NCBI GenBank assembly: GCA_036277635.1
Contig: DASUMP010000043.1
Location: 1 to 50,872 of the forward strand
Origin: Acidimicrobiia bacterium
GTDB taxonomy: Bacteria; Actinomycetota; Acidimicrobiia; IMCC26256; PALSA-610
Reading direction: 5' to 3'
Length of the DNA: 50,872 nt
The stretch's first letter is position 1. Each line of letters starts with the position of its first letter. The position numbers and the translations under genes were made by a program. Of the stretch, positions 6,501 to 45,887 are shown piece by piece. The notes beneath the pieces are model-generated. The model made no database searches and was not told where the DNA came from. It was given only the letters and a program-made list of their open reading frames with translations.

Positions 6501-7028
6501 CTCACCCCGGGCCTCGACCTGGAACTCACGCCGGTACCCGGCTCCCACCAGCCGCTCGACGAGCTCGTCGCGATCGACGCGGTCGCCGGGCCGCACGACG
6601 ATCGGTTCGACCGCCTCGACGTGCGGACCGAGACGCTGCACCAGCGCGCGCACGGGCGCGACGACGACGGTGGGGAGGTGCTCGCCGCCGACGCGCAGAC
6701 GCCACATGACGCGCAGCCGGCGTCCCATCGTCTCGAGCGCGGGCGACACCCGCTCGAACGGCAGTGTCTCCCACGCCGGGAACAGCTCGACCGCGTCGTC
6801 GCCCAAGAACGCGCGCAGATCGTGCGCGACGCGCTCGGCTTCGGCCGCGGTCGGCACGGCGAGGAGCACCGGCCGCCGGACGCCGACGCGGGCGCACGTC
6901 GCCACGAACAGCGCCCGCGCGGCCTCGGGCACCGCGACCGTGTTCCCGGCGCCGGCGGTCGCGGCGCGCACGACGTCGTCGGACGCGAGGACCGTCGCGA
7001 GACCGGCGAGGGGCGCGCCGACGCTCAC
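3531..7028 (-). CDS. mfd: Transcription-repair coupling factor Mfd
   Basis: About 1165 aa with helicase motifs (LVCGDVGFGKTEVALRAA, LLVVDEEQRFGV, TLSATPIPRTL, QLYQLRGRVGR). Start placed at the GTG at 7028, which overlaps the pth stop (GTGA). The track ORF extends to 7076. Confidence 0.93.
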   Translation of the reverse strand: MSVGAPLAGLATVLASDDVVRAATAGAGNTVAVPEAARALFVATCARVGVRRPVLLAVPTAAEAERVAHDLRAFLGDDAVELFPAWETLPFERVSPALETMGRRLRVMWRLRVGGEHLPTVVVAPVRALVQRLGPHVEAVEPIVVRPGDRVDRDELVERLVGAGYRREFQVEARGELAVRGSIVDVYPASADHPVRIDLWGDEVDRLSQFSVADQRSTTDLDDVWIFPARELLPTAEVRERAELLLQQEPWGREHWERLAQGATFDGMESWLPWLCPDEHLLSDLLPADALVALVEPRRLRDRAAELLDEEAALGSVLAKTWDVGTDDSPREPPRLSLPFDRLLAHTRAGTTFVLASADQPSTPLLAASAFDPVVGDSEALALRLQRLRAEGVAVFVAAEGAGSANRITQILAEEGVVADRLDAVDDQSAALSGGGVHVVVAAIDRGAVVSSAGIALVAEADLTGRRRVHRRARGARKGVDHYEGLAPNDYVVHRVHGIGRYLGMETREMFGVTRDRLVVEFRGSDRVYVDSEDIGLLRKYTGGEAPKLSKMGGAEWEKARARVRRAVRDIAAELVILYRKRLATPGHAFAEDTPFQHQVEEAFPYEETPDQLRAIEDTKADMERPVPMDRLVCGDVGFGKTEVALRAAAKAVFDGRQVAVLVPTTLLASQHGSTFRERFAAYPVRVETLSRFLSPKEQADVVAGLRDGSVDIVIGTHRLLSDDIRFKQLGLLVVDEEQRFGVQHKERIKYMRESVDVLTLSATPIPRTLELSLTGIRDLSLVNTPPEDRQPILTYVGEYDPRAVTEAIRRELLREGQVLYVHNRVHDIQHVAADVRDLVPEARVAVAHGQMDENRLEQVVTSFWEREHDVLVCTTIVESGLDMPTVNTLVVDRADALGLSQLYQLRGRVGRRGQRAYAYLLYPPDRKLTDEAYERLKTIGEFTDLGSGFKIAMRDLEIRGAGNLLGAEQSGHIAAVGFDLYMEMVTQAVDELTGRTREAPVEVQIDVPVTAHLPRDYIGRDDVRMEAYRRLAAVTTPADVDDVRDEWIDRYGPPPAPAEALLEVARLRADCVRLGIRAVSVQKQLVRFEGLELRKSQEVRLQQVAPRATVTADAVVVPLGSVGGGPAGGVVLLEALRALLGAIAPRTPEASETDASPPIRSATP

Positions 7029-7630
7029 CCGTTGAACCGGTTCATCGCGACGTCGACGCCGTCGGCGAGGATGCACTCGACCGCATCGGCGGCCCGCTCC
7101 ACCGCGACGTCGATCTCGGTGCGCTCCCGCTTCGAGAAGGCCGAGAGCACGTGGTCGGCGCCGCGCTCCTTCGACACCGGCTTGCCCACCCCGATGCGCA
7201 CGCGCACGAAAGCGTCGGTGTGGAGGTGCGCCTTGATCGACCGCAAGCCGTTGTGGCCGGCGAGCCCGCCCCCCACCTTCACGCGCAGCACGCCGACGGG
7301 GAGATCGAGCTCGTCGTGCACGATCACGACGCGATCGGCGTCGACGCCGTGGCGACGCGCGAGTCCCTGCACCGCGGCGCCCGACTCGTTCATGTAGGTG
7401 AGCGGTCGCGCGAGAGCGACACGGCGCTCGCCGATGCGCACCTCGTCGGCGAGCGCGCGCTCCTTCGCCCTGCGCAGGCGACCGCCGTGACGCGCCGCGA
7501 GCACGTCGACGACCTCGAACCCGACGTTGTGGCGCGTGCGCGCGTACTCGTCGCCGGGATTGCCGAGCCCGACGACGAGCAGGTCGGCCGGTGTGCCGGT
7601 GCGCTCGCCGCGGCGATCACGCCGCAGCAC
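7025..7630 (-). CDS. pth: Peptidyl-tRNA hydrolase
   Basis: 201 aa; LLVVGLGNPGDEYARTRHNVGFEVVDVLA and HNGLRSI motifs. Confidence 0.93.
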   Translation of the reverse strand: MLRRDRRGERTGTPADLLVVGLGNPGDEYARTRHNVGFEVVDVLAARHGGRLRRAKERALADEVRIGERRVALARPLTYMNESGAAVQGLARRHGVDADRVVIVHDELDLPVGVLRVKVGGGLAGHNGLRSIKAHLHTDAFVRVRIGVGKPVSKERGADHVLSAFSKRERTEIDVAVERAADAVECILADGVDVAMNRFNG

Positions 7631-7633
7631 GCA

Positions 7634-8287
7634 TCACCCTTCGGACTCGCCGCCCTCGTCGGTGGCGGCGCCGCCCTCGGCGGCCTCGCCTTCCGCGGCC
7701 TCGCCCTCGGCGGCCTCGCCCTCCGCGGCCATCGCGCGCGGGATCGAGACCGCGGCGACGACCTCGTCGGCCTCTTGCAGCACGGTGACGCCAGCGGGGA
7801 TCGCGAGGTCGCGGACGTGCACCTGGTCGCCGACCTCGAGCGCGCTGATGTCGTGCTCGATCACGTTGGGCAGGTCGCCCGGCTTCGCTTCGATCGACAG
7901 CGTGAAGATCTGCTGCTCGAGCATGCCGCCCATGTTCACGCCCTCGGCGGTGCCGACGAGCGAGAGCGGGATCTCGGCGGTGACCGTCTCGTCGGCGCTG
8001 ATGCGGATGAAGTCGACGTGCACCACGTCGCCGCGGATCGGGTCGCGCTGGATCTGGCGGGCGAGCGTGAGCTGGCCGGCACCGTCGACCTGCAGCGTGA
8101 TCAGCGTGTTCGCGCCCGCCGCCCCCGACAAGATGTGCTGGAGGTCTCGCGCGTCGACCGCGACGGCCACCGGGTCGTCGCCGCGCCCGTAGACCACGGC
8201 CGGCACCCGCCCGGCCCGGCGCAGCCGCCCGGCGGGACGGCTCCCCCGCTCGGGGCGGAGCTCGGCGTTGAGTACTGCGTCTGACAT
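7634..8287 (-). CDS. rplY: 50S ribosomal protein L25 / general stress protein Ctc, with an acidic (AEGEA)n C-terminal tail
   Basis: MSDAVLNAELRPERGSRPAGRLRRAGRVPAVVYGRG... is a typical L25/Ctc N-terminus. ATG at 8287; an in-frame GTG at 8296 is an alternative start. Confidence 0.9.
   Translation of the reverse strand: MSDAVLNAELRPERGSRPAGRLRRAGRVPAVVYGRGDDPVAVAVDARDLQHILSGAAGANTLITLQVDGAGQLTLARQIQRDPIRGDVVHVDFIRISADETVTAEIPLSLVGTAEGVNMGGMLEQQIFTLSIEAKPGDLPNVIEHDISALEVGDQVHVRDLAIPAGVTVLQEADEVVAAVSIPRAMAAEGEAAEGEAAEGEAAEGGAATDEGGESEG
7676..7730. repeat. About 3.7 tandem copies of a 15-nt unit (CTCGGCGGCCTCGCC) inside the rplY 3' end
   Basis: Read directly: ctcggcggcctcgcc / ttccgcggcctcgcc / ctcggcggcctcgcc / ctccgcggcc. 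On the minus strand this encodes AEGEAAEGEAAEGEAAEG. Confidence 0.85.
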
Positions 8288-30459: not shown

Positions 30460-31818
30460 GTGGCGGAGTCTCCCGGCGTCTGGGCACCGGAGCGCCGCGC
30501 ACTGACCACGGGCCTCGTGCTCACGATCACGCTCGTGGCGTTCGAGGCCCTCGCGGTCTCCACGGTGATGCCCGAGGTGCAAGCCGACCTGCGCGGACTC
30601 GCCTGGTACGGCTGGGTCTTCTCGGGCTTCTTCCTCGGGCAGCTGCTCGGGATCGTGATGGCCGGTCACCAAGCCGATCGTCGCGGCCCGGCGGCGCCGT
30701 TCGCACTCGGGCTCGCGATGTTCGTGGTCGGGCTCCTCATCGGCGGCTTCGCCGTCTCGATGCCGATGCTGGTGCTGGGTCGCGTCGTGCAGGGGCTCGG
30801 CGCGGGCGCGATCCCCGCGACGGCGTACGTCGCCGTCGGACGCGCGTACGCGCCCGAGCTCCAACCCCGGGTGTTCGCGGTGTTCTCGACCGCGTGGGTC
30901 GTCCCGGGGCTCATCGGACCGGCGCTCAGCGGTGCGGTCGCCGAGGCGTTCTCGTGGCGCTGGGTGTTCCTCGGCCTGCTCCCGCTCGTCGCGGTCGCGG
31001 GCGTGATGGCGCTGCCGGGGCTCCGCGCGCTCGCGCCCGCCGAGCGGAGCAGCGAGGCGCCGAGGTACGGCACCGCGCTCGCCGTGACCGCGGGTGCCGG
31101 GCTCGTGTTGGGGGGCATCGGGAGCGGCAACGTGGCGCTCGCGGTCGCCCTTGCGGTCCCCGGCGGCGTGCTCGCGACCCGGGCGTTCATGCGTCTGGTG
31201 CCGGTCGGCACGCTGCGCGCCGCGCCGGGGCTGCCCGCCGCGGTCGCCGTGCGCGGGATCCTCACGTTCGCGTTCTTCGGCGCCGACGCGTACGTGTCCC
31301 TCGCGTTCGTCGACGTCCGCGGCACACGGCCGTGGGTCGCCGGACTCGCGCTCACCGCCGCGACGCTCGCGTGGACTTCGGGCGCGTGGGTGCAGGAGCG
31401 ACGCGTTCGCGTCGCCGGGCCACGACGCCTGGTGCGCGAGGGCTTCGCGTTGCTCGTGGTCGGGATCGCGGGCCTCGGCTCGGTGCTGTTCGAGAGCGTG
31501 CCGATCCCCGTCGCGATCGCGGTGTGGGGAATCGGCGGACTCGCGATGGGACTCGCCTACGCGCCGCTGTCACTCACCGTGCTCGCGTCCGCCGCACGCG
31601 GTGAGGAGGGCGCAGCCGCCGCGTCACTCCAGCTCTCCGACGTGCTCGGCGTGGCGCTCGGCACCGGAGCCACTGGCGCCGCGGTCGCGGTCGCCGACGC
31701 CCTCGATCGGGATCCTCGCGCCGCGCTCCTGGTGGCGTTCCCGGTCATGGCCGCCGTCGCCGTGTTCGGCGCGCTCGTCGCTCGTCGGCTCCCCGAACAT
31801 CTCCCCGACGCGCGCTGA
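30460..31818 (+). CDS. MFS transporter
   Basis: 12-14 TM pattern. VMAGHQADRRGPAAPF is the MFS loop 2-3 motif. Start set to GTG 30460, because the track start 30385 would overlap the divergent beta-lactamase start. Confidence 0.8.
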   Translation: MAESPGVWAPERRALTTGLVLTITLVAFEALAVSTVMPEVQADLRGLAWYGWVFSGFFLGQLLGIVMAGHQADRRGPAAPFALGLAMFVVGLLIGGFAVSMPMLVLGRVVQGLGAGAIPATAYVAVGRAYAPELQPRVFAVFSTAWVVPGLIGPALSGAVAEAFSWRWVFLGLLPLVAVAGVMALPGLRALAPAERSSEAPRYGTALAVTAGAGLVLGGIGSGNVALAVALAVPGGVLATRAFMRLVPVGTLRAAPGLPAAVAVRGILTFAFFGADAYVSLAFVDVRGTRPWVAGLALTAATLAWTSGAWVQERRVRVAGPRRLVREGFALLVVGIAGLGSVLFESVPIPVAIAVWGIGGLAMGLAYAPLSLTVLASAARGEEGAAAASLQLSDVLGVALGTGATGAAVAVADALDRDPRAALLVAFPVMAAVAVFGALVARRLPEHLPDAR

Positions 31819-31880
31819 GCGACTCGGCGGTCATCTGGGCCGGACGGCCCAACGCAGCCCGCGAGCATCCGAGCGCGTCG

Positions 31881-32234
31881 GTGCGCGTGGGACAATCGCT
31901 GGCGATGCCGCGATCGTCCACCAAGGCCGCGCGCCCCGACGCGAAGGAACAACCTCCGACCCGGCTGCTCGCCGTCGCCGCAGCGTCGGTCGTCATCGGC
32001 GCGGTCCTCGTCGTCCTCGGCGAGTTCGCGTTGCACGTCGTGGGTTACGTCCTCGCGTCGTTCCAGACCATCGGGCTCGTCGCGGCGTACACACGCATCG
32101 ACAACAGCCGGCGCAGCTCCGCGCACTACGTCCCGCTCGCGCACGCCGGACGCATCGTCTCCGCGATCACGATCGCCGGGATCATGGTCGCCGGCGTCCA
32201 CGTATGGATGATCGCCACGGAGCTGGCCGGGTGA
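31881..32234 (+). CDS. Small 3-TM membrane protein, translationally coupled to the vWA gene
   Basis: 117 aa (109 aa if ATG 31905 is used). Hydrophobic segments LLAVAAASVVIGAVLVVLG, VVGYVLASFQTIGLVAAY, IVSAITIAGIMVAGVHVWMIA. Its stop TGA overlaps the next ATG (TGATG at 32232-32236). Confidence 0.55.
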   Translation: MRVGQSLAMPRSSTKAARPDAKEQPPTRLLAVAAASVVIGAVLVVLGEFALHVVGYVLASFQTIGLVAAYTRIDNSRRSSAHYVPLAHAGRIVSAITIAGIMVAGVHVWMIATELAG

Positions 32235-34918
32235 TGCACCGCACGACGATCCGCACGCGCGCGATCGGCGTCGTCGCGCTGCTGTGCGCCGCCCTCGCGC
32301 TGTTCACCTCGGTGCCCGGTCGTCCGGCGGCCGCGCAGACCGACGCCGGCGCCGAGGCGACGCTCACGGAGATCGCCAGCTGCCTGAAGGACACGAACCG
32401 CCTGCTCGTGATGCTGCTCGTCGACGAGTCGGGCAGCCTGCGCACCACGGATCCCGCCAACGAACGCGTGACGGCCGCGAGGCTCGCGTTGCAGGCGTTC
32501 ACCGCGCTCACCCAGGATCCCCCGGCGGGCGGCAACGCGCCGAGCGTCGAGGTGCTCGTCGCCGGCTTCTCGAGCTCGTTCAACGAGCTGGTGCCGTGGA
32601 CGCCGCTCAACGCGCGTTCTGTGCGCCAAGTCGAGCTCGCGGTCGACGGCTTCGCCACGCGCAACTCGGGGATCGACACCGACTTCCCCACCGCGCTCAT
32701 CGGCGCCCAGCGCCGGATGGCCGAACGCACGCAGGAGATCACCGACGGCGGCGTCGCCGCGCCGTGCAAAGCGATCCTCTTGTTCACCGACGGTCGCTAC
32801 GACATCCAGACCGGCAACACCCCGGCCCGCCGGGCGGCGCCCGACAGCAAGGAGTACGCACCGAACCTCTCGGTGCTCGACCCCCGCAACGACCAAGCCA
32901 TCGAAGAAGCCGGGCGGACGTTCCTCTGCCAAGAGGACGGACTCGCCGACCGGCTGCGCGCCGACCGCGCCACGCTCGTCACGCTCGCACTCTCGGCCCA
33001 GCTCACCGTCGCCGATCAAGCGTTCCTGCGCGCGCTCGCCACCGGCGAGTACGAAGGGATCACGTGCGGGAGTCGGCGCGGCGCGCGCTTCGGCGCCTAC
33101 CTCGCGAGCGCCACGCTCGAACAGCTCGCCCCGCTGTTCAACCAGGTCGTGAGCACGATCGGAGGTGGCTCGCGCCTCCCCGGCCAGACCCGGCCCGGCG
33201 AATGCGCGACGTCGCCGTGCATCCGCGGTACCCGTTCGTTCACGCTCGACGAGGTGATGAACCGCTTCACCGCCACGCTGCGCACGGGTGCCGACGCCAT
33301 CCGCGCCGAGCTGACCGCGCCGAGCGAGGCGTCGGCGCTGATCCTCGAACCGGGGGTCGACGGCGAAGAGGAGTACGGCGGCACGACGATCGCGTGGACC
33401 TGGGTCGGCGAGGACACCGTGACCGTTCGATCGTCGCTCCCCGCCGACGACTTGGAGTGGGTCGGCGACTGGAAGATCGAGTTCGTCGACGTCACCGGTC
33501 TCGCCGATGACGCGCGCCCCGATGCCTTCATCGACGTGTTCGGGGCGTGGACGCCGCAGCTCGCGAACCGTGTCCGCTTCGTGCGGGGCGAGGACACGCG
33601 GCTCGCCGTGGAAGTGGTCGACACGGCCGGCGAGCGCGTGTCGCGCCGCCGGCTCGACGACGCCGGGTACCGCATCGCCGGGAGCGTCGTCGACCGCGGG
33701 ACGGGGACCACCACGGCGCTCGACCTGAGCGACACCGACGAGTCGGGGCTCATCACGACCCGCTTCGCGACGCCGGCCGACCTCGCGAGCGAGCAGCTCG
33801 ACGTGCGCCTGCGGCTCACGATCGGTACGAGCGACCCCGACGTCCGGCTCGCCGCGACCGAGCGCTACACGCTCGACGTCGAGCCCCCCGACATCTACCC
33901 GAGCCTCGTGACGGTCGAGCTCGAGCTGTCGTCGGTACGCGGACTCGAGGCGGCCGAAGGCGTGATCGAGATCGTGGGCGGCCGCGACCGAGCCGGATGC
34001 GTGTGGATCGGCGTACCCGTGTTCGACAGCTTCCCGGCGAGCGCCGAAGGATTCGCCACCACGATCGCGCCGAACTCGACCGAGGCGCGCTGCGTCGAGG
34101 TGACGTCGCGCGCCACCGTGGAGTTCGAGGTGCGCGTCGAGCCGCGCGCGATCGGCGAGGGGACCGCCGCGGGGACGATCCCGGTGTTCCTCAGCGCCGT
34201 CGACGAGGGCGACGCGCCGGAGGTGCTCGAGGTGTCGTTGCCCATCACCTTCGACATGTCGCCGCCGATCAACGAGGCGCGCCGACTCGGGCTCTTCGCC
34301 GTGATCCTGTTGGCGGGGATCCTCGGCCCGATCGTCGCCGTCGCGCTGCTGAACGTGGCGCTCGCTCGGTTCGAGCCCGCAGCCGACGCGCTCGTCGCCC
34401 GCGTGCCCGTGCAGGTCGAACGGAGCTTCTCGCGGATCATGCGGGTCTTCGCCCAGGCCTCGGACCACCCGGCCGGTCGCGCGATCCGACGCCTCGGACC
34501 CGGCGGCGAGACCGACGAGCTCACGCTCTCACTCGCCGAGTTCGAACGTCTACGCACGGGAGCAGAACGCTCGCGCACGGTCGAGTGGGACGACCTCCTG
34601 TTCCAAGCCGAAGCGCCGCGCAATCCGTTCGGCACCCCGTTCGGCACGGTGCTCTCGCGCTCACCGATCGTCGCCGGCAACGTCGCGACGCCGATCAACC
34701 GCGACGCGCGGATCCCACTCGCGCTGCCGGGCACGTGGGTGTTCGTGCTGCGCGACCTCGGGGCCGGCGACGCCGAGAGCTGGATCGCCGGTGATCTGGT
34801 GATCGTCCTCGCCGAGAGCGACGCCGAGGCTCAGCTCCCCCGCGTCCTCGCCGCGGTCGACGCCCAGCTCCCGACGCTGGCGAACGACCTGGCCGACGAG
34901 GTCCGCGACGGTCAGTGA
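32234..34918 (+). CDS. Secreted/single-pass membrane von Willebrand factor A (vWA) domain protein, 894 aa
   Basis: Signal peptide MHRTTIRTRAIGVVALLCAALALFTSVPGRPAAAQ. MIDAS motif LLVDESGSL (D-x-S-x-S at 32423-32437). ILLFTDGRYD. TM helix LGLFAVILLAGILGPIVAVALLNVAL near 34290-34365, followed by a ~180-aa cytoplasmic tail. Upstream part of track ORF 31094..34918 rejected. Confidence 0.8.
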   Translation: MHRTTIRTRAIGVVALLCAALALFTSVPGRPAAAQTDAGAEATLTEIASCLKDTNRLLVMLLVDESGSLRTTDPANERVTAARLALQAFTALTQDPPAGGNAPSVEVLVAGFSSSFNELVPWTPLNARSVRQVELAVDGFATRNSGIDTDFPTALIGAQRRMAERTQEITDGGVAAPCKAILLFTDGRYDIQTGNTPARRAAPDSKEYAPNLSVLDPRNDQAIEEAGRTFLCQEDGLADRLRADRATLVTLALSAQLTVADQAFLRALATGEYEGITCGSRRGARFGAYLASATLEQLAPLFNQVVSTIGGGSRLPGQTRPGECATSPCIRGTRSFTLDEVMNRFTATLRTGADAIRAELTAPSEASALILEPGVDGEEEYGGTTIAWTWVGEDTVTVRSSLPADDLEWVGDWKIEFVDVTGLADDARPDAFIDVFGAWTPQLANRVRFVRGEDTRLAVEVVDTAGERVSRRRLDDAGYRIAGSVVDRGTGTTTALDLSDTDESGLITTRFATPADLASEQLDVRLRLTIGTSDPDVRLAATERYTLDVEPPDIYPSLVTVELELSSVRGLEAAEGVIEIVGGRDRAGCVWIGVPVFDSFPASAEGFATTIAPNSTEARCVEVTSRATVEFEVRVEPRAIGEGTAAGTIPVFLSAVDEGDAPEVLEVSLPITFDMSPPINEARRLGLFAVILLAGILGPIVAVALLNVALARFEPAADALVARVPVQVERSFSRIMRVFAQASDHPAGRAIRRLGPGGETDELTLSLAEFERLRTGAERSRTVEWDDLLFQAEAPRNPFGTPFGTVLSRSPIVAGNVATPINRDARIPLALPGTWVFVLRDLGAGDAESWIAGDLVIVLAESDAEAQLPRVLAAVDAQLPTLANDLADEVRDGQ

Positions 34919-37372: not shown

Positions 37373-38337
37373 TGCGTGGCCTCTCCGACCTGATCGACCG
37401 CGGCCTCGACGTCACCGTCGCACCCGGCTTCACCCGCATCGGCTACGCAGCCCGCTCGCGCCTCGAACGCTGGACACCGCTCGACCGCTACGACTTGCGT
37501 GGCCGCGTCGCGGTGATCACCGGCGCGACGTCGGGCATCGGACTCGCGGCCGCGCGTCGTCTCGCGACCGCCGGCGCGACCGTCGAGGTGCTCGCGCGCA
37601 ACGCCGACAAGGCCGCTCGCGTCGTCGAGGCGCTCCGCACCGACGCGCCCGGTGGCGTCGACCTGGTCGTCGTGGACACGAGCGACCTCGACGCCGTCCG
37701 CGCCGCCGCCACCGAGCTGCGCGCTCGGCACGACCGGATCGACGTGCTGATCCACAACGCGGGCGCGCTCGACGCCGACTACGAGACGAACCGCGACGGC
37801 ATCGAGCAGACGGTGGCGAGCCAGGTCGTCGGCCCGTTCCTCCTCACCACGCTTCTCCGCGACGCGCTGCACGCGGCAATGCCGTCGCGTGTGCTGTGGG
37901 TCGCGTCGGGTGGCATGTACTCCGAGCGCCTCGACGTCGACCGACTCGAGATGACACCCGCCGACTACGACGGCACGAAGGCGTACGCGCGCGCCAAGCG
38001 CGCGCAGGTCGCACTGGCCGAGGAGATGGCCAAGCGCTTCGCGGCCGACGGCATCGTCGTGCACTCGATGCACCCCGGTTGGGCCGACACGCCCGGCGTC
38101 GAGCGTTCACTCCCCACGTTCCGCAAGATCGTCGGGCCGCTCCTGCGCACCCCGGACGAGGGCGCCGACACCCTGGTGTGGCTGGCCGCCGACGACGGCG
38201 AACCGCTCGCCACGACCGGCCGCTTCTGGCACGACCGGCGTCCCCGTCCGACGCACAAGCTGCGGTCCACGCGAGCGTCCGACACCCCCGCCGAGCGCGC
38301 GCGGCTCTGGGACTGGTGCGTCGCACGTACCGCCTAG
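37372..38337 (+). CDS. Short-chain dehydrogenase/reductase (SDR)
   Basis: VAVITGATSGIGLAAARRL (TGxxxGxG), NAG, and the YxxxK-like YARAKRA. 321 aa. Confidence 0.85.
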   Translation: MRGLSDLIDRGLDVTVAPGFTRIGYAARSRLERWTPLDRYDLRGRVAVITGATSGIGLAAARRLATAGATVEVLARNADKAARVVEALRTDAPGGVDLVVVDTSDLDAVRAAATELRARHDRIDVLIHNAGALDADYETNRDGIEQTVASQVVGPFLLTTLLRDALHAAMPSRVLWVASGGMYSERLDVDRLEMTPADYDGTKAYARAKRAQVALAEEMAKRFAADGIVVHSMHPGWADTPGVERSLPTFRKIVGPLLRTPDEGADTLVWLAADDGEPLATTGRFWHDRRPRPTHKLRSTRASDTPAERARLWDWCVARTA

Positions 38338-39164
38338 AGGCCGCGCGTCTCCGAGGTCAGGTCGCGCCAGCACACCGCGAACACCGGCGTCGCCTCGGAC
38401 AAACCCTTGAGCGGCACCGCGCCGCGGTCCTCGAAGACGAACTGCTTGCCGATGCACAGCTCACGCACCGCGAGCGAGGTGAAGATGTCGCCGGCCGGCG
38501 CGCTCGAACACAGGCGCGCCGCCAGCTGTACCGCGGCCCCGAAGAGATCGTCGTGCTCGTCGGTGACGGGCTCGCCGGCACTCACGCCGATGCTGACTTC
38601 GAGCGGGACCCGGGCGTGACGATTGCGCTCGTCGATTGCCGACTGCACCGACACGCTGAACGCGACGGCCGAGGCCACCGAGCTGAACGCGGCCATGATG
38701 CCGTCGCCGGTGTGCTTGACCTCGCGGCCGCCGTGCGCGGCCAGCGCGGCGCGCACGATGTCGTTGTGCGCGTGCAACAGCTCGAGATGACCGTCGTCGC
38801 CGAGCTCGCGCGTCTGCTGGACGGAACCCACCATGTCGGTGAACACGATCACCCGCACGGCCGACGCGGTGTAGGGAGTGCCCACGCGATGCATCGGCAT
38901 GGAACCGAACATCGCGTTGAGCGGAACGTCCTGGTCGAGCTCGAGGATCGTCGTCGCCAACCCGCCGTGGGCGTCTCGGTGCACCGCTTCGACTGCTTCC
39001 TTCGTGGGCCCCTCGGCGAGGCAGAACACCGTGCCAGCATCGGGATCGAACCAGTAGGTGTGGTATCGCACCCCGTACGCCTCTTGGATGTCGACGTCGC
39101 GCTTGTGCGCCTCCGAGATGTCCTCGGGCGTCAAGCCCTGCGTCTCGTGGCGATCGAGGAACAT
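38334..39164 (-). CDS. DUF4242 (SCO4226-like) domain fused to a class III adenylate/guanylate cyclase catalytic domain
   Basis: 276 aa. N-terminus MFLDRHETQGLTPEDISEAHKRDVDIQEAYGVRYHTYWFDPDAGTVFCLAEGPTKEAVEAVH is DUF4242-like. Cyclase motifs: VIVFTDMVGS, VKHTGDGIMAAF, GVSAGEPV, FGAAVQLAARL (the canonical Asn is Gln here), PLKG. Confidence 0.8.
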   Translation of the reverse strand: MFLDRHETQGLTPEDISEAHKRDVDIQEAYGVRYHTYWFDPDAGTVFCLAEGPTKEAVEAVHRDAHGGLATTILELDQDVPLNAMFGSMPMHRVGTPYTASAVRVIVFTDMVGSVQQTRELGDDGHLELLHAHNDIVRAALAAHGGREVKHTGDGIMAAFSSVASAVAFSVSVQSAIDERNRHARVPLEVSIGVSAGEPVTDEHDDLFGAAVQLAARLCSSAPAGDIFTSLAVRELCIGKQFVFEDRGAVPLKGLSEATPVFAVCWRDLTSETRGL

Positions 39165-39251
39165 GGGCACACGACAACGATAGGCCCGCCAGCCCACCTC
39201 GGTCGTCCGTCGGGTGCTGCTCCGACTCGCCGCGCTGTTCGTGGGCGTGGG

Positions 39252-40511
39252 CTAGGTGGGCTGATCGTCCGTTGCCGCGCGCAGCCGCGCCGCGAGCGTC
39301 TGGAGCAAGTTCCAGGCGATCGTCGCGTTCTGCTGCACCAGCGGACGGAACTCCCAGTAGGTGAGCCCGTGACACACGAGCTCGGTGGTGGCGGTGACGG
39401 TCGCGGAGCGTGCACCGCCGTCGATGAGGGCGATCTCGCCGAAGTAGTCGCCGCTCGTGAGTGTCGCGCGCGGCCTGCCTCCGACCGAGACCGTCGCGTC
39501 GCCCGACTCGATCACGAAGAACGCGGCGCCCCCGGCGCCTTCCTTGGTGACCGTCTCGCCTGGGGCGAACCGGCGCTTCTTGAAGCGCGCGGCGATGTCG
39601 TCGACGTCGCGTGGACTCATGTTGGCGAAGAGCGGCACGCGCTCGATCACCTCGGCAGTGCCGCTCGCCGCCGCGGGCGCGCTCGGACGGGGAGACGTTC
39701 CCGTCCGCGTCACCGCCCGACACTGGAGCAAGTACAGCCGACCGTCCGCGAACGCCCACTCGATGTCGCGCGCCGGTCCGTACACGTCCTCGCAGTGCGC
39801 AGCGAGCGCGTGCAGCTGCGCCAGCTGTTCGTCGTCGAGGCAGAGCTGCTCGATGAGCTCGGGCGCGACAGCCTCCTCGATCGTCCCACCGTTGTCGACG
39901 GCGCGGATCGCGAGCTTCTTGAAGCCGGCCGTGCGCTCGAGCACTTCGCCGCTGCGGTCGATGCGGAAGGTGTCGGGGATCACGCGGCCCGCCACCACCA
40001 CTTCGCCGAGTCCCCAGCTCGCTTCGATCACCCGCTCGTCGGCCCCGTTGATCGGGTTCTGCGTGAACATGACCCCGGCCGACTCAGGGTTCAGCAGCGA
40101 CTGCACGACCACGCCGACACTCGGCCGGGCGAACAGCCCCACGCGCTGGCGGTAGGTGATCGCGGAGTCGGAGTTCGCCGACCACCAGATCTCCCGGACC
40201 GCCGCGCTCAGGTCGTCGACCGACGGCACGTTGAGCAGCGTGAGGTGCTGCCCCGCGAAGCTCGCGTCAGCGCCGTCTTCGTCGGCGGCCGACGAACGCA
40301 CGGCGAGCGGGCCCGCCAGCGACCGGGCCGCACTCACGAGCTGGTCGATGGCCGCTTCCTTCCCCGCGGCCACGTCGTCGACGAACGAACCCGACAGCGC
40401 GAGGCCCGGAGGGCACGGCAGACCCGCACGCGCTGCCGCTCCGAGCCCGGTGGCCTTCGCCCCGAAACGCGAGTCGTCCTGCGCCTCCGCGAGCGGGACG
40501 ACGTCGGTCAC
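39252..40511 (-). CDS. PEP/pyruvate-binding ATP-grasp domain (PPDK_N-like) fused to a C-terminal cyclic-nucleotide-binding domain
   Basis: 419 aa. N-terminus: FGAKATGLGAAARAGLPCPPGLAL, LAVRSSAADEDGADASFAGQH, VVVQSLLNPESAGVMFT, DIEWAFADGRLYLLQCRAVT. C-terminus: VPLFANMSPRDVDDIA...GDYFGEIALIDGGARSATVTA (FGE..A...R[ST]A cNMP cassette). The GTG start overlaps the upstream stop (GTGA). Confidence 0.85.
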   Translation of the reverse strand: MTDVVPLAEAQDDSRFGAKATGLGAAARAGLPCPPGLALSGSFVDDVAAGKEAAIDQLVSAARSLAGPLAVRSSAADEDGADASFAGQHLTLLNVPSVDDLSAAVREIWWSANSDSAITYRQRVGLFARPSVGVVVQSLLNPESAGVMFTQNPINGADERVIEASWGLGEVVVAGRVIPDTFRIDRSGEVLERTAGFKKLAIRAVDNGGTIEEAVAPELIEQLCLDDEQLAQLHALAAHCEDVYGPARDIEWAFADGRLYLLQCRAVTRTGTSPRPSAPAAASGTAEVIERVPLFANMSPRDVDDIAARFKKRRFAPGETVTKEGAGGAAFFVIESGDATVSVGGRPRATLTSGDYFGEIALIDGGARSATVTATTELVCHGLTYWEFRPLVQQNATIAWNLLQTLAARLRAATDDQPT

Positions 40512-42145
40512 GTGTAGACCGTCACTTCACCGGCGTCGCCGTCGACTCGCACGCGCGTCCCGTCGGGAATGAGGTCGGTCGCGCTGCGTGTGCCGACGAC
40601 GCCGGGGATGCCGTATTCACGCGCCACGATCGCCGAGTGCGACAACAAGCCTCCGGCATCGGTGACGATCGCGCCGAGCAGCGGCAGCAGGATGTTGAAC
40701 GCCTCGGTCGTCGACTCGGTGACGAGGACATCACCCTGCACGATGCGATCGAAGTCGATCGGGCCAGCGACACGCCGCGCTGGCCCTTCGTACACACCGC
40801 CGCTCGCGGCGAGTCCGCGCAGCAGGTTGTCCTCGTGCGCAGCCTCCGAGCTGCCGAACAGCTCACCCAATGCGACACCGACCGCGCGCATGACCCGGCC
40901 GACTCCCGGAGGGAGCCCCGACGGATCAGGCGGCGGGGGCGGCGGCGGCCCCAGCGACGCCGGCGCCTCCTTCGCAGTGCGCGAGCTGCGGTCGGCGAAA
41001 CGCTGCGCGAGCTCGTCGGCCGACGGCCCACCCGAGCCCGTCACGAGCGCGCACATCTCGTCGAAACCGGCGTCGACGAAGTGCTCCGCGTCGTGGACGC
41101 CGCCCTTGCCCTCGAGCCGGCGACCGGCCGCGAGCGCCGCTCGCCGCATGATGCCCGACGCCCAGATGTCGCTGAACACACCGCGTTCGTCGCGCAGCCG
41201 GTACATGAGGCGCGCCTCGCCGAGCAGCTCGTCGAACTCAGCGCGGTGCTCGTCGGGCACCTGCGCGCGGATCCCGGCGATGCGCGCGTCGACATCAGCG
41301 GTGTCGTTCCCGGCGCCATCGACCGCAGACCGGATCGAGCGCAACAGCACGTCGGGCAGCTCGAGCGCGTAGCGGCCGGCGATGTCGAAGCCGTCGAGCA
41401 ACCGGCAACCGACGAGGTCGAGGTATGCCGCCACCGCTGGGCCGACGTCGCCCCCGAACGCGCGCAGCTCCGCGAGCGTCTTGCCGGGATCGCCGTCCGA
41501 GTCGAGGAGGCTGCGAGCAGCCGTGTCGTTCGTGATCGCCGCGATGAGTCGTTCGAGCTCACCCGACGCGCCCGCGGACACGGGAGCCGCACCCCGCAAC
41601 ATCGCGAGCGTGTCGGATGGCGTGACGCTGGTCCACGCCCCGAGGTGCACGAGCAGGTCACCGACCGGGAGCATCGCCGAGCCGGTGAAGCGCATGTGCT
41701 GGAAGATCATCTGTGAGTGGTGCTCGCGACAGCGCGTGAGGTACTCCACCATCGCGTCGTCGGACAGCGCGTCGGCGTCGACCGCCTGGAGCTCGCGGTG
41801 CGTCGTGATCGCAGCCGGTTTGAAGGTGTCGTCCCACTCGCGCAGCTGGTCACGCCAGACCTTGCGCTCCCACACTTCCTCCGCGCGGGCGAACCGCTGC
41901 GGGATCTCCTCGTCGGGCGCCGGCCGCATCGTGCTGTACGCGAAGCCGTGGACGTACTGCATCTCCATCCCGTCGAGCGGCGTGCCGTAGAACGCCATGA
42001 ACTCGCGGGTGCCCCGGCGGAACGGCTCGGGATGCATCTCCGCCCAGTACCGCGTGACCGGACGCGGGAAGTGCACCGGGTCGAGGTGCCACGACCCCGG
42101 ACCCGGGGGCTCGAACTGCAGCGTCGTCGTGCCCTGACCCGCCAT
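40508..42145 (-). CDS. PEP-utilising enzyme, mobile phosphohistidine (swivel) domain protein with a long N-terminal domain of unknown specificity
   Basis: 545 aa from ATG 42145 (GGGGGG upstream). C-terminus: GVYEGPARRV...GDVLVTESTTEAFNILLPLLGAIVTDAGGLLSHSAIVAREYGIPGVVG is a canonical swivel-His motif. The N-terminal ~440 aa are unassigned, comparable in position to the substrate-binding domain of rifampicin phosphotransferases. Confidence 0.8.
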   Translation of the reverse strand: MAGQGTTTLQFEPPGPGSWHLDPVHFPRPVTRYWAEMHPEPFRRGTREFMAFYGTPLDGMEMQYVHGFAYSTMRPAPDEEIPQRFARAEEVWERKVWRDQLREWDDTFKPAAITTHRELQAVDADALSDDAMVEYLTRCREHHSQMIFQHMRFTGSAMLPVGDLLVHLGAWTSVTPSDTLAMLRGAAPVSAGASGELERLIAAITNDTAARSLLDSDGDPGKTLAELRAFGGDVGPAVAAYLDLVGCRLLDGFDIAGRYALELPDVLLRSIRSAVDGAGNDTADVDARIAGIRAQVPDEHRAEFDELLGEARLMYRLRDERGVFSDIWASGIMRRAALAAGRRLEGKGGVHDAEHFVDAGFDEMCALVTGSGGPSADELAQRFADRSSRTAKEAPASLGPPPPPPPDPSGLPPGVGRVMRAVGVALGELFGSSEAAHEDNLLRGLAASGGVYEGPARRVAGPIDFDRIVQGDVLVTESTTEAFNILLPLLGAIVTDAGGLLSHSAIVAREYGIPGVVGTRSATDLIPDGTRVRVDGDAGEVTVYT

Positions 42146-42248
42146 CTGCGAACCCCCCGCACTCGTTGCCGCGCAACTCGGTGACGCGCCTCGTGCGTGG
42201 ATTCTCACCGGCCGACTGCGATCCAGCAACCGCTGAGCCGGGAAGCAG

Positions 42249-42321
42249 TGGAGGTGAGCGGACTCGAACCGCCGACTTCTACGTTGCGAACGTAGCGCTC
42301 TACCAGCTGAGCTACACCCCC
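42249..42321 (-). tRNA. tRNA-Ala (anticodon CGC)
   Basis: Hand fold: GGGGGTG acceptor stem with the G3:U70 Ala identity pair. D-arm TAGCTCAGCTGGTAGAGC. Anticodon arm CTACG-TTCGCAA-CGTAG. T-arm GGCGG-TTCGAGT-CCGCT. Discriminator A. No encoded CCA. Confidence 0.9.
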
Positions 42322-42373
42322 GAAGGGAAGGGCGAGCGTACCAAAGCGCCTGCGCAGGACTGCGGGCGAAACG

Positions 42374-43012
42374 TCAGCGGGTGTGGCGGTCGGCGGTCTC
42401 GATCGCGTGCTGGAGACGGTGCGCGACGAGCGCGGTGGTGAGGTCGCCGCGGGTGCGCTCGAGCACGGCTCGGAGCGCGTCGGTGGTGCGGCGCAGGCCG
42501 CCGGTGACGCCGTCGGGATAGTCGATCGTCACGAGCGTGCCGTACACGTCGTCCATCGCGCCGACGAGGTGCTCGGCCCGGTCGAGGTCGCCGGCGCGGA
42601 GGCGGTCGAGGGCGGCGCGGCGCAGCTCGCTCGCGGCCTCGGCGAGACCGTTGCACCACGCGGCGGCGTCGATGCCGAGGTCGGCGGGGGCGGGCAGCGG
42701 GTCGTCGCGCACGAGGGCGAGCGTGAGGAACGCCTCGGCGAGCTCCTTCTTCGCGTCGTGCAGCGGCCCGGTCGCGCGGATCTCGGGGTGATCGGCGAGC
42801 GCGGCGTCGGCTTCGGCGACGTGCGCCTGCGCGTCGCGAGCGAGCTCGGCAGCCGCGGCGTACTCACCGCGATGAGTCGCTCGGATCGACCGTGCGCAGG
42901 CTTGGATGGCGGTGCGGGACGCGGCGATCGTGACTTCGCGTGCCCGGTGGCGTTCGTCGAGCGCGTCGCGCACGGCGGCGCCGAGCGCGTTGATCTCGCC
43001 GGCGCGGTCCAC
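42374..43012 (-). CDS. Translin-family (COG2178-like) helical protein
   Basis: 212 aa, all-helical. ...IRATGPLHDAKKELAEAFLTLALV...AAWCNGLAEAASELRR...LVTIDYPDGVTGGLRRTTD resembles prokaryotic translin-family proteins. Called from memory only. Confidence 0.5.
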   Translation of the reverse strand: MDRAGEINALGAAVRDALDERHRAREVTIAASRTAIQACARSIRATHRGEYAAAAELARDAQAHVAEADAALADHPEIRATGPLHDAKKELAEAFLTLALVRDDPLPAPADLGIDAAAWCNGLAEAASELRRAALDRLRAGDLDRAEHLVGAMDDVYGTLVTIDYPDGVTGGLRRTTDALRAVLERTRGDLTTALVAHRLQHAIETADRHTR

Positions 43013-43020: not shown

Positions 43021-43500
43021 CTACGACGACGCGATGCGGCGCAACGCGAGCTCGGACGGCGCGCGGTGCGACAACGCGTGCACGGTGCGCTCACGATCCG
43101 CCGACAGCGAGCGGAACCACGCGTAGAGCGCGAGGTACGCGACGAGCAACAGGTCGGCGATCACCTGCACGGCCCAGAGGATCGGGGCGCCGCCGACGCT
43201 CGCGAGGATGAAGGTCGCGGCGACCGCGGCGGCGAGGATCGTCATGACGTCGCGGCGGCGCTTGGCGGCGGGGGTGAGCGGTCGGGCGCTCGGTCGATCA
43301 GTGCGCACCGGCGGGAGCGGGGAGACGCGAGCCGGTGCCGCGCTCGGGTCGAAGGTGCCGTTGGTGCGGCCGAGGACCCCGAGGCGGTAGTTGAAGTCGT
43401 CGATCGAGTCGCCCGACTGCTGGGTGCGGGACCGCAGCAACGGCGGGACGAGCACGACGGCCCACAGCACAGCGAGGATCAGCAACACCACGATCGCCAC
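43021..43500 (-). CDS. Hypothetical membrane protein (N-terminal TM, disordered linker, two C-terminal TMs)
   Basis: 159 aa. VAIVVLLILAVLWAVVLVPPLL..., Pro/Arg-rich middle, ...VMTILAAAVAATFILASVGGAPILWAVQVIADLLLVAYLALYAW. Confidence 0.55.
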   Translation of the reverse strand: MAIVVLLILAVLWAVVLVPPLLRSRTQQSGDSIDDFNYRLGVLGRTNGTFDPSAAPARVSPLPPVRTDRPSARPLTPAAKRRRDVMTILAAAVAATFILASVGGAPILWAVQVIADLLLVAYLALYAWFRSLSADRERTVHALSHRAPSELALRRIASS

Positions 43501-43694: not shown

Positions 43695-44198
43695 TCAGAA
43701 CCCGAAGGGATCGGCGCCGTCGGGGACGGGCCGGCGGAAGGTGCCGGAACGACCGCCGGTCTTCTCCCACAGTGCGAGCTCGCCGATCGTCATCGACCGG
43801 TCGATCGACTTGCACATGTCGTAGATGGTGAGCGCGGCGACCGAGCACGCGGTGAGCGCTTCCATCTCCACGCCGGTGCGATCGACCGTGTCGACCTGCG
43901 CCTCGATCTCGACGTGAGCGTCTTCGATCCGGAAGTTCACGTAGACCGAGCCGACGAGCAGCGGGTGGCACAACGGCAGCAGGTTGGAGGTCTGCTTGGC
44001 GGCCTGGATCCCCGCGACGCGAGCGACGGCGAGCACGTCGCCCTTGGTGATCGCACCGGAGGCGATCTTGGAGGCGGTGTCGCTCTCCATGTTCACCCGG
44101 CACCGGGCGACCGCGCGGCGGTGGCTCGGCTCCTTCGACGTGACGTCGACCATGCGGGCGCGGCCGAGCGGGTCGAGGTGCGTGAACTCCGAAGCCAC
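43695..44198 (-). CDS. moaC: Cyclic pyranopterin monophosphate synthase accessory protein MoaC
   Basis: MVDVTSKEPSHRRAVA, KGDVLAVARVAGIQAAKQTSNLLPLCHPL, VDRTGVEMEALTACSVAALTIYDMCK. Start placed at GTG 44198; the rest of track ORF 43695..44738 was rejected. Confidence 0.92.
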   Translation of the reverse strand: MASEFTHLDPLGRARMVDVTSKEPSHRRAVARCRVNMESDTASKIASGAITKGDVLAVARVAGIQAAKQTSNLLPLCHPLLVGSVYVNFRIEDAHVEIEAQVDTVDRTGVEMEALTACSVAALTIYDMCKSIDRSMTIGELALWEKTGGRSGTFRRPVPDGADPFGF

Positions 44199-44240
44199 GG
44201 GGAGAGTGTAGGAGGGGATGCCGCCGGTACGCTCCGGCCG

Positions 44241-44777
44241 GTGCGCCGGACCCTGGGCTCGGTCCTCCTCGTCGCCTCGCTCCTGACCGCCTGCTCGGCC
44301 GACGGCGACGACTCCTCCGGAGCCCCCGCCACCTCGAGCACCACGGCTCCGGGCTCCTCGACGACCACCACGGGCGCGCCGGCGACTCCGTCGACGCCGC
44401 CGACCACCTCGGGTGGGATCGAGCCGGTGCGGCGGGCGGCCGCGGCGTGCGAGACCCTCGTCGGTCAGGACCCCGCGCGCGCGAGGGTGCTCACCTCGGC
44501 CCCGTCGGTGGCCGCGGCCGTCGTCGCCGAGCTCGCCGCCGTCGGCGCGGCTGCGGCACCGTGGGACACCCTCCCGCCCGACCACTTCGTCGCGGTGTGC
44601 ACGTTCGCCGCGACACCCACGGCGGCGCAGCCACCGGCCACGATCGCGTGCCCCGATGGTGCCGTGGTGCTCGACGTCGCGACGTCGGCGTTCTACGCCG
44701 ACGAGAGCGGTCGCACGTCGGACGCGTCGGCGGTGCACGAACCCGACCCGTGCGTGGAGCCGACGCCGCTGCCCTGA
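44241..44777 (+). CDS. Hypothetical lipoprotein with a Ser/Thr/Pro-rich linker
   Basis: VRRTLGSVLLVASLLTACSADGDD has a lipobox (LTAC). It is followed by SSTTAPGSSTTTTGAPATPSTPPTTSG and a ~110-aa Cys-containing domain. The exact start is uncertain. Confidence 0.55.
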   Translation: MRRTLGSVLLVASLLTACSADGDDSSGAPATSSTTAPGSSTTTTGAPATPSTPPTTSGGIEPVRRAAAACETLVGQDPARARVLTSAPSVAAAVVAELAAVGAAAAPWDTLPPDHFVAVCTFAATPTAAQPPATIACPDGAVVLDVATSAFYADESGRTSDASAVHEPDPCVEPTPLP

Positions 44778-44798: not shown

Positions 44799-45887
44799 TC
44801 AGCCGCCGATCTGGCTCATCGACCGGTCGGGACGCACGAAGTCGACCTGCCCGACACGGTGCCCGGCCCACTTCGTGCCGACCGCACGCGCGATCGCGTC
44901 GGCGAGGCGATCGTCGAGATCGGGGGCGGCGAGACCGTCGGCCGCGCGCACGACGGCGCGCAGGTCGTGCTCGTGCACGGCGAACAAGCACGTGCGGAAC
45001 GCACCCTCCGCGGTGATGCGCACGCGGTCGCAGTTCTCGCAGAACGGCTCGGTGACGGTCGCGATCACGCCGACGTCGCCGCCGCCGTCGGCGTACTCGA
45101 AGCGTTCGGCCGGCTCGACGTGGCCGTGCTGGGGGGCCGCACCGGTGCCGGGGACCGGCGTCGAGCGCAGCGGGAACACGGCGTCGATGCGCGCCAAGAT
45201 CTCGCGGGCCGGGACGACGCGCTCCATCGTCCATTCACCTTGCGCGTCGAGCGGCATGAACTCGATGAAGCGCACCCCGACCCCGCGCTCGCGCCCGAAC
45301 CGGGCGAGGTCGACGACCTCGTCGTCGTTCACGCCGCGGATCACCACGGCGTTGATCTTCACAGGGTCGAGGCCGGCGTCGAGCGCGGCGTCGATGCCGG
45401 CGAGCACGCGGTCGAGCTCGTCGCGCCGTGTCAGCGCGAAGAACGTCTCGCGCCGCAAGGAGTCGAGCGACACGTTGACACGCGAGAGACCTGCGTGCGC
45501 GAGGTCGTGCGCGAGCTCGGGGAGCTTCACGCCGTTCGTCGTGAGCGCGAGATCCACGCCGAGCGGGGCGAGCATCTCGATGAGGCGCGTGACGTGCGCG
45601 CGGATCAGCGGCTCGCCTCCCGTGACCCGGATGGCGTCGAAGCCGAAGCGCTCGACGCAGACACGCGCGATCCGGGCGTGCTCTTCGTAGGTGAGCAGCT
45701 CGTCACGGGGCAGCCACGTCATACCCTCCTCGGGCATGCAGTAGGTGCACCGGAAGTTGCAGCGGTCGGTGATCGAGATGCGCAGGTCGCGCACGCGCCG
45801 CTGCTGCGGGTCGAGCAGCGGGACGGGGACCTCGCGACGCGTCACCGACCCAGGATAGGAGTGGGGCGCAAGCGTCGGTCCCGGCAC
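44799..45887 (-). CDS. moaA: GTP 3',8-cyclase MoaA (radical SAM)
   Basis: LRISITDRCNFRCTYCMPEEG (CxxxCxxC radical SAM) and a C-terminal FCENCDRVRITAEG cluster. Start is either ATG 45887 or GTG 45845. Confidence 0.93.
   Translation of the reverse strand: MPGPTLAPHSYPGSVTRREVPVPLLDPQQRRVRDLRISITDRCNFRCTYCMPEEGMTWLPRDELLTYEEHARIARVCVERFGFDAIRVTGGEPLIRAHVTRLIEMLAPLGVDLALTTNGVKLPELAHDLAHAGLSRVNVSLDSLRRETFFALTRRDELDRVLAGIDAALDAGLDPVKINAVVIRGVNDDEVVDLARFGRERGVGVRFIEFMPLDAQGEWTMERVVPAREILARIDAVFPLRSTPVPGTGAAPQHGHVEPAERFEYADGGGDVGVIATVTEPFCENCDRVRITAEGAFRTCLFAVHEHDLRAVVRAADGLAAPDLDDRLADAIARAVGTKWAGHRVGQVDFVRPDRSMSQIGG

Follow-up and report, generated by a model that had tools for sequence, protein, structure and literature searches.

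We analysed a 50,872-nt stretch of DNA from an Acidimicrobiia bacterium (GenBank assembly GCA_036277635.1, contig DASUMP010000043.1), referred to here as the window. Its base composition is about 72% G+C, and it is closest to metagenome-assembled genomes (MAGs) from soil that bear the label Acidimicrobiia or Actinomycetota. On the minus strand lie two overlapping genes, A and B, which together encode the parts of a predicted phosphotransferase, and downstream of them a third gene, C, which encodes a predicted nucleotide cyclase. An earlier note made from this DNA had treated the three genes as one signalling unit. The open reading frames (ORFs) lie where that note placed them, a Pfam search bore out all of its domain assignments (PEP-utilizers, PPDK_N, cNMP_binding, SCO4226-like and Guanylate_cyc), and the motifs it quoted (GGLLSHSAIVAREYGIPGVVG, LAVRSSAADEDG, DIEWAFADGRLYLLQCR, GDYFGEIALIDGGARSATVTA and FGAAVQLAARL) are all found in the translations. 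The genes and their parts are as follows.

40508-42145, minus strand: gene A, ORF of 545 aa; predicted phospho-carrier/substrate subunit of a two-component dikinase, counterpart of HpeH, CreH or PpsA
40856-42058, minus strand: helical substrate-binding domain of A (residues ~30-430), placed by Pfam PF27448 'Rph_4th', NCBIfam alignments and comparison of an AlphaFold2 (AF2) model with the PDB
40511-40840, minus strand: swivel (mobile) phosphohistidine domain of A (residues 436-545), placed by Pfam PEP-utilizers and PDB matches
40637-40639, minus strand: codon of A His503, within T495-x-x-G-G-x-x-x-H503
39252-40511, minus strand: gene B, ORF of 419 aa with a GTG start; predicted ATP-grasp subunit with a fused cyclic-nucleotide-binding (CNB) domain
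39687-40511, minus strand: PPDK_N ATP-grasp nucleotide-binding domain of B (residues 1-275), placed by Pfam, PDB matches and invariant residues
39276-39641, minus strand: CNB domain of B (residues ~291-412), placed by Pfam and by matches to the cGMP- and cAMP-dependent protein kinases (PKG and PKA)
39399-39443, minus strand: phosphate-binding cassette F357-G-E-I-A-L...R368-S-A-T371, within the CNB domain of B
38334-39164 as an ORF, probably 38334-39170, minus strand: gene C, fusion of an SCO4226-like (DUF4242) domain to a class III adenylate cyclase domain

The GTG start of B shares bases with the TGA stop of A, a GTGA overlap that is read directly from the sequence. We kept the ATG at 42145 as the start of A because a length of 545 aa is shared by most of the orthologues listed. 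C probably begins two codons before the ATG at 39164, with the GTG at 39170, which gives a protein opening M-P-M-F; we moved the start because the consensus of the C family opens xPMFxDRH. The 87 nt that the earlier note counted between B and C is therefore right for the ATG at 39164, but the probable GTG start reduces the spacer to 81 nt.

Gene A carries an Rph-type domain and a swivel domain

Pfam places a PEP-utilizers domain at residues 470-539 of A (E = 1e-19), and this swivel domain matches those of rifampicin phosphotransferase (RPH) and phosphoenolpyruvate (PEP) synthase in the PDB (E = 2e-16). It contains the motif T495-D-A-G-G-L-L-S-H503, in which G498-H503 are invariant among orthologues. 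The residue two positions before His503 is Leu, where PEP synthase has a regulatory Thr.

The preceding ~440 residues, which had been described as a domain of unknown specificity, can be assigned to a family. A and its relatives carry PF27448 'Rph_4th' in the precomputed Pfam annotation of the protein database, and the NCBIfam models PRK08296 and PRK06241 align over residues 88-543 and 107-543 of A, respectively. We searched the PDB with an AF2 model of A (mean predicted local distance difference test score, pLDDT, of 73) using Foldseek. RPH of Listeria monocytogenes (RPH-Lm; 5fbu, 5hv1 and 5fbt) was the sole full-length match (E = 5e-13 to 2e-12), aligning over ~590 columns at 19-20% identity; the remaining structural matches covered the swivel domain only. 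By sequence and predicted fold, A opens with ~430 residues that form an Rph-type substrate-binding domain, a homologue of the part of RPH that binds rifampin.

A library search with A returned 927 clusters at E <= 1e-30. Most are split-type proteins of 520-590 aa, and a few are fused forms of 868-980 aa. Among the listed full-length representatives just one is more than ~51% identical to A, which suggests that the A proteins partnered with a CNB-containing B form one compact clade.

Gene B is an ATP-grasp subunit with a fused CNB domain

In B, Pfam identifies PPDK_N at residues 40-275 (E = 2.5e-60) and cNMP_binding at residues 313-395 (E = 2.2e-13). In the PDB, the N-terminal ~275 residues have ATP-grasp matches in PEP synthase, in a 387-aa chain (9GOJ) and in RPH, with E values of 1e-33 to 1e-38. 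Residues K19, R72, D249, E251, Q263 and R265 are invariant among B orthologues, and we take them to correspond to the ATP/Mg ligands K22, R92, D321, E323, Q335 and R337 of pyruvate phosphate dikinase (PPDK) from Clostridium symbiosum.

The PF01326 and PF00027 combination is common to the best 120 database matches of B. It is absent from the PPDK_N-only proteins of 273-286 aa that partner more distant relatives of A, in agreement with the earlier view of the CNB cassette as an addition. Residues 5-272 of B align without a gap to the 286-aa stand-alone partner at 57% identity, and the partner ends ~11 residues later. Judged by this gapless alignment, the CNB domain is a clean C-terminal addition to an otherwise standard ATP-grasp subunit. 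The Pro/Ala/Ser linker before it is poorly conserved (residues 276-312, 48% mean identity; length roughly 20-35 residues). The two domains themselves are equally conserved, with a mean identity to the window sequence of 77% for the CNB domain and 75% for the ATP-grasp domain.

The best whole-chain match of the CNB domain is PKG (E = 2.7e-33, a sum over several CNB domains), followed by PKA regulatory subunits (E = 3e-20 and weaker), and the cassette of B aligns with the cassettes of both kinases. G358, E359, R368 and A370 are invariant in 75/75 B orthologues, preserving the Gly-Glu pair that contacts the ribose 2'-OH and the Arg-x-Ala that contacts the phosphate. Among the same 75 proteins, the residue after the cassette Arg is Ser in 40, Ile in 12, Ala in 10 and Leu in 7. 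The predominance of these four residues (69/75) over Thr, the PKG-type cGMP determinant found in only 3/75, favours cAMP as the ligand. The C-terminal helices of the domain (W386-R411) are largely invariant among closer orthologues. It is the invariant cassette that leads us to infer cAMP binding by the CNB domain of B.

Literature searches for a PPDK_N and cNMP-binding fusion, for a CNB domain with PPDK and for RPH with cAMP returned no description within the searched library. The CNB-fused ATP-grasp subunit is conserved, and with it A-B form a variant of a known enzyme type that has apparently not been described before.

We also tried to name A and B by NCBIfam equivalog models. PEP synthase, RPH, PigC/RedH and PRK08296 were all rejected as names, with scores far below cut-off.

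A and B resemble a two-component dikinase

Taken together, A and B rebuild the three parts of RPH (ATP-grasp domain, substrate-binding domain and swivel His), as the earlier note had recognised. With a probability of about 0.7, we read them from their sequences as the two subunits of a cAMP-gated, ATP-dependent small-molecule dikinase of the RPH/HpeHI/CreHI/PpsAB type. Those defining features of a two-component dikinase that a sequence can show are present: one subunit with Rph_4th and PEP-utilizers domains, an adjacent PPDK_N subunit, and a TxxGGxxxH motif that lacks Thr at position -2.

The split and permuted order, which had seemed unusual, is the defining layout of HpeHI from Rhodococcus rhodochrous GD02, CreHI from Corynebacterium glutamicum and PpsAB from Thauera/Aromatoleum, and it is also the layout of the nearest relatives of A outside its own family. 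In HpeHI, CreHI and PpsAB, a subunit with a RIF-binding-like and a swivel domain works with a separate ATP-grasp subunit of ~40 kDa, and both are required (PMC12167813). A-B show the same division of labour. The TxxGGxxxH of A is the motif defined for HpeH, in which the substitution H581Q abolishes activity; across two-component dikinases the His of T/SxxGGxxxH is essential and the regulatory Thr of the PEP synthase type is absent (PMC12167813). The gene order also agrees: in the window, as in the nearest relatives of A, the H-type gene precedes its partner and overlaps it by 4 nt.

A-B differ from the HpeHI type in several respects. Both A (545 aa against 71 kDa for HpeH) and the ATP-grasp portion of B (~275 aa against 40.6 kDa for HpeI) are shorter than their counterparts. 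B has a C-terminal cNMP-binding domain, whereas none is reported for HpeI, CreI or PpsB, and A-B have no aromatic-catabolism genes around them. In Thauera, phenylphosphate synthase is stimulated by a separate CBS-domain protein, PpsC. The presumed regulator in B is instead fused to the enzyme and of a different fold.

RPH of L. monocytogenes (PDB 5FBS/5FBT/5FBU, 5HV1) has the same three modules as A and B combined, and the swivel-His mechanism would be the same. RPH is a single chain in the order ATP-grasp, RIF-binding and swivel, whereas A-B are split, with the ATP-grasp subunit encoded second. RPH also lacks a nucleotide-sensor domain, while B has one. For this sensor the closest parallel that we considered is mycobacterial Pat (Rv0998/MSMEG_5458). 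Like B, Pat is an actinobacterial enzyme with a fused PKA-type CNB domain, by which it is gated directly, and the NCBIfam model NF058543 (ActPatMycb56) matches residues 294-412 of B (E = 5e-10). The catalytic domain of Pat, however, is a protein acetyltransferase of the GNAT (Gcn5-related N-acetyltransferase) family, and its CNB domain is N-terminal, whereas that of B is C-terminal.

By analogy with the characterised homologues, A-B would carry out dikinase chemistry. The ATP-grasp subunit B would bind Mg-ATP and offer it to the swivel domain of A, where His503 would become (pyro)phosphorylated. The swivel domain would then move the phosphoryl group to a small molecule bearing a hydroxyl group, presumably the class to which the substrate belongs, held in the helical Rph-type domain of A. 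The net reaction would be ATP + substrate + H2O -> AMP + Pi + substrate-P. Binding of cAMP to the CNB domain would act as a switch, positive or negative, on the ATP-grasp subunit or on its docking to A, with a ligand-driven shift of the C-terminal helices of the CNB domain exerting this control. The analogy with mycobacterial Pat suggests relief of autoinhibition as the likely mode. Phosphorylation of the substrate would in this way be an output of cellular cAMP signalling.

The A-B pair is conserved as a unit

To see how A-B are distributed, we scanned one genome per species for relatives of B. At least 320 genomes were positive, and the best 80 loci were kept; together with the two closest metagenome contigs they form a set of 82 related loci. 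The 80 genome loci come mostly from soil MAGs labelled Acidimicrobiia, with some labelled Solirubrobacterales, Gaiellales, Frankiales or Nocardioides. A lies directly upstream of B in ~78/78 informative loci, meaning those with upstream DNA present, and the two genes mostly abut or overlap by a few nucleotides. Gene order and these short junctions show a pairing that is obligate and translationally coupled. Protein identity of A and B ranges from 62 to 91% across the genome loci and reaches 94% for A and 88% for B in the closest metagenome contigs.

A and B are the only genes conserved across the 80 loci. The neighbour families that recur are generic: short-chain dehydrogenase/reductase (SDR), DrrA-like ATP-binding cassette ATPase, FtsX permease, zinc-dependent alcohol dehydrogenase, luciferase-like monooxygenase, major facilitator superfamily (MFS) transporter and amidohydrolase. 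At the closest genome locus (L001), nucleotide identity is 87% and homology is confined to window positions 39231-42229, that is, from 84 nt upstream of the start of A to 21 nt past the stop of B. In the closest metagenome contig (L088, with A at 94% identity), an IS110-family transposase (DEDD_Tnp_IS110 + Transposase_20; 2400-3617) lies ~860 nt upstream of the operon and a GNAT acetyltransferase downstream. Because homology ends at the edges of the operon and the surroundings vary, A-B appear to be an autonomous, cassette-like unit of two genes. On the sequence comparisons made here, the operon behaves like a portable two-gene cassette that is found in many contexts.

Gene C belongs to a common cyclase family

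Pfam identifies an SCO4226-like domain at residues 2-75 of C (E = 6.8e-18) and a Guanylate_cyc domain at residues 106-256 (E = 2.7e-12). C belongs to a large, well-conserved family of SCO4226-like and cyclase fusions of 268-278 aa (63-77% identity), and those members that have a named source carry the label Acidimicrobiales or Acidimicrobiia. Among characterised cyclase domains, those of Rv1900c/LipJ and Ma1120 are closest (PDB 1YBT and 4WP9; E = 1e-22 and 1e-19). Alignment to these two proteins confirmed that Gln213 occupies the position of the class III transition-state Asn and that the metal-binding Asp residues and the Lys are present, as first noted. In 40 family members, the metal residues D110 and D154, the specificity residues K150 and D206, the transition-state R217 and Q213 are all invariant.

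The Gln might be taken as a mark of an odd or inactive enzyme. The Asn position is occupied by His in Rv1900c and by Ala in Ma1120; in these proteins the N-terminal partner is an alpha/beta-hydrolase or is missing, whereas in C it is the SCO4226-like domain. Ma1120 is an active cyclase with Ala at this position, and the substitution A164N destroys its activity (PMC4215837). Since the Gln is invariant in the family of C and Ma1120 is active without the Asn, Gln213 is a family trait, different from the His and Ala of the two characterised proteins, and gives no evidence of inactivity. C is probably an active adenylate cyclase that evolves independently of A-B. The N-terminal domain had also been called nickel-binding. 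The assignment to the SCO4226-like family holds, but the nickel label rests on sites of SCO4226 with low affinity (dissociation constant ~10 uM) on the solvent-exposed surface (PMC4186839), and it therefore does not amount to an established sensor function.

Gene C is not linked to A-B in related genomes

If A, B and C formed one self-contained module, the DUF4242-cyclase would make a cyclic nucleotide locally and so gate the phosphotransferase, as the earlier note proposed. The window itself is compatible with such a module. C shares its strand with A and B and follows B after a spacer of 81-87 nt, and a scan of 38000-42600 for promoters and terminators found no promoter- or terminator-like site of either kind, including between B and C. 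At this spacing C may be co-transcribed with A-B in this genome. The residues of C are of the adenylate cyclase type (K150/D206) and the cassette of B is of the cAMP type.

Related genomes tell against it. In tblastn searches with C or with its two domains separately, no C orthologue was found near A-B in 80/80 genome loci. C is also absent from the two closest metagenome contigs (A 94% and B 88% identical), so that 82/82 related loci are without it. The closest genome locus is homologous at the nucleotide level only as far as 39231, 21 nt past the stop of B and short of C. Two C orthologues that we checked (L081 and L083) have unrelated neighbours.

We then scanned the 707 kb of DNA flanking A-B with an iterated hidden Markov model for any class III cyclase. 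One lies within 6 kb at 9/80 loci and adjoins the operon at 4/80 (L010, L036, L057 and L076), a point in favour of some connection between A-B and cyclases. However, the nine are not orthologous to C, being LipJ-like hydrolase-cyclases, cyclase-AAA16-TPR proteins, DUF4062-cyclase-AAA16 proteins or stand-alone cyclases, and they lie upstream or downstream of A-B on either strand. Their density is ~1.3 per 100 kb of flank and, by a rough estimate, ~1.7 per 100 kb adjacent to the operon, not clearly higher than the ~1.0 per 100 kb at 1.5-6 kb. Because the linkage of C to A-B is not kept in related genomes, the three-gene module is unsupported, and we consider it unlikely. By comparison of the loci, C is a chance neighbour of A-B, in this genome only, and no conserved part of the system. 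It may supply some of the cAMP in this genome without being a dedicated partner of A-B.

One of the cyclase genes in the flanks was recorded separately. At L012, in a MAG labelled Streptosporangiaceae, a large ORF at 4549-7893, 1.8 kb downstream of A-B, encodes DUF4062 together with a class III cyclase domain and an AAA_16 ATPase domain.

The substrate and relatives of A outside the family

Relatives of A at 47-49% identity keep the same operon, an A-like gene followed by a B-like gene with a 4-nt overlap, and have different partners. Two of these loci, L084 and L087, encode a partner that consists of PPDK_N alone and is 286 or 273 aa long. In a Myxococcaceae contig (L086, 5710-7989), the partner of the A-like protein is a 759-aa PPDK_N + MFS_1 fusion, and at L087 a separate MFS gene follows the dikinase pair. 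The MFS fusion and the MFS neighbour suggest a link, in some two-component dikinases, between the enzyme and the transport of its substrate. These out-family relatives adjoin TetR, MarR, glyoxalase and MFS genes, a context that hints at xenobiotic or antibiotic substrates. For the CNB-type family an endogenous substrate is equally possible, because this family has no conserved resistance-type context and is unusually well conserved.

A further A-like protein, 51% identical to A, is encoded on a Joint Genome Institute (JGI) contig (sample 3300047160, genes at 1018-5902) with no adjacent PPDK_N gene. A TetR gene precedes it, and an O-methyltransferase (Dimerisation + Methyltransf_2) and then a 494-aa protein without a Pfam match follow. 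This locus may be a natural-product tailoring context.

These observations bear on whether A-B are a genuine rifampicin phosphotransferase, or another antibiotic-inactivating kinase, under cAMP control. Such a role would fit with RPH as the only full-length structural match of A and with the label rifampicin phosphotransferase that some JGI records give to A orthologues. The TetR, MarR, glyoxalase and MFS neighbours of the out-family relatives, together with the MFS fusion, are typical of xenobiotic resistance, and the operon moves between contexts, with an IS110 transposase nearby in L088. The family models, however, do not recognise the proteins as RPH. Against the two NCBIfam RPH models (NF041857 / NF000283), A scores 80.6 and 63.4 and B scores 165.9 and 125.5, where the cut-offs are 999 and 1700, and the enzyme is split into two chains. 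Between the substrate domains of A and RPH, identity is no more than 19-20%. No conserved resistance-type neighbours were found at the 80 loci of the CNB-type family, and we judge its high conservation atypical of resistance enzymes. A genuine RPH, or another antibiotic-inactivating kinase, is an improbable description of A-B.

Two further identities are very improbable. Most automatic annotations call these proteins pyruvate,water dikinase, and the PPDK_N and PEP-utilizers domains are indeed shared with the PEP synthase of central metabolism. That label is wrong because there is no PEP/pyruvate-binding TIM-barrel (PEP-utilizers_C) in A, B or the neighbouring genes by Pfam; in addition, the large domain of A is of the helical Rph type, the models TIGR01418 and NF005057 score ~83-163 bits against cut-offs of 598-740, and A has Leu in place of the regulatory Thr at position -2 from the catalytic His. 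A Pycsar-like anti-phage system, made of a cyclase and a cNMP-activated effector, is suggested by the adjacency of a cyclase to a CNB-domain protein in the window and by PADLOC matches of the B CNB domain to the CNB part of PycTIR models (E = 1.5e-13) and, weakly, of C to PycC (E ~1e-3), but these matches are at the level of domains with none for A, the obligate adjacency of cyclase and effector is missing (C in 0/82 loci, any cyclase within 6 kb in 9/80), and C has the purine (adenylate) K/D residues of the LipJ/Ma1120-like group.

Several points weigh against the cAMP-gated small-molecule dikinase that we prefer. The search for conserved neighbours at the 80 loci found no specific partner, with each recurrent family at <=9/80, and so gives no hint of a pathway. 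Across the orders that the MAG titles name, identity is 62-91%, higher than we would expect for xenobiotic kinases, and conservation this high could mean an endogenous substrate, either housekeeping or a protein, rather than an RPH-like one. With nine cyclases per 707 kb of flank, four of them adjacent, there may be a weak enrichment of cyclases around A-B. The AF2 model of B has a mean pLDDT of 49.8, too poor to predict contacts between the CNB and ATP-grasp domains. Finally, CNB folds of the Crp/Fnr type at times bind ligands that are not cyclic nucleotides.

A possible new class of cAMP effector

In bacteria, to our knowledge, cAMP is described as acting mostly through CRP-family transcription factors, a single protein acetyltransferase (Pat), channels or transporters, and effectors of defence. 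If confirmed, a cAMP-gated small-molecule dikinase would extend this list to the RPH family of phosphorylating enzymes, which inactivate antibiotics or activate phenolics, and would place one of them under the direct control of a second messenger. Phosphorylation of a specific small molecule, leading to its inactivation, activation or trapping, would then be switched by cAMP, and in soil the molecule could be an antibiotic or a signalling metabolite. The family is found in at least 320 species-level genomes, most of them from uncultured soil Acidimicrobiia, at 62-94% identity, under the annotations 'pyruvate, water dikinase' or 'rifampicin phosphotransferase', and both labels fail. The two-component dikinase design is already known and C is an ordinary member of a common cyclase family; what appears to be new here is the fusion to a cNMP sensor.

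We put forward more tentatively, at slightly less than even odds, the wider idea that CNB-fused A-B are an unrecognised class of bacterial cAMP effector, in which cAMP directly gates an RPH-like dikinase in a large group of uncultured soil Acidimicrobiia and related Actinomycetota, and that in this genome a DUF4242-cyclase, possibly metal-sensing, was recruited as a local source of the signal.

Other features of the window

Two features border the three genes.

42248-42321: tRNA-Ala(CGC) gene, ~100 nt upstream of A
37387-38337, plus strand: SDR gene, convergent with C, its end overlapping the C stop codon

The stop codons of C and the SDR gene overlap by ~4 nt (38334-38337), which leaves no intergenic room for a terminator. 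Upstream of A, two coding-looking ORFs of 212 and 159 aa (42374-43012 and 43021-43500, minus strand) with a third-position G+C (GC3) of ~0.88 have no Pfam match. Both sit between the tRNA-Ala gene and moaC, and MoaC (43695-44270) and MoaA (44799-45887) come next on the same strand. Further away, a very long ORF on the plus strand (31094-34918, up to 1274 aa) has a lone VWA_2 domain match (E = 1.3e-7). Its Arg/Pro-rich N-terminal extension is probably non-coding, and the true start is probably close to the hydrophobic signal-like segment 'MHRTTIRTRAIGVVALLCAALALF'.

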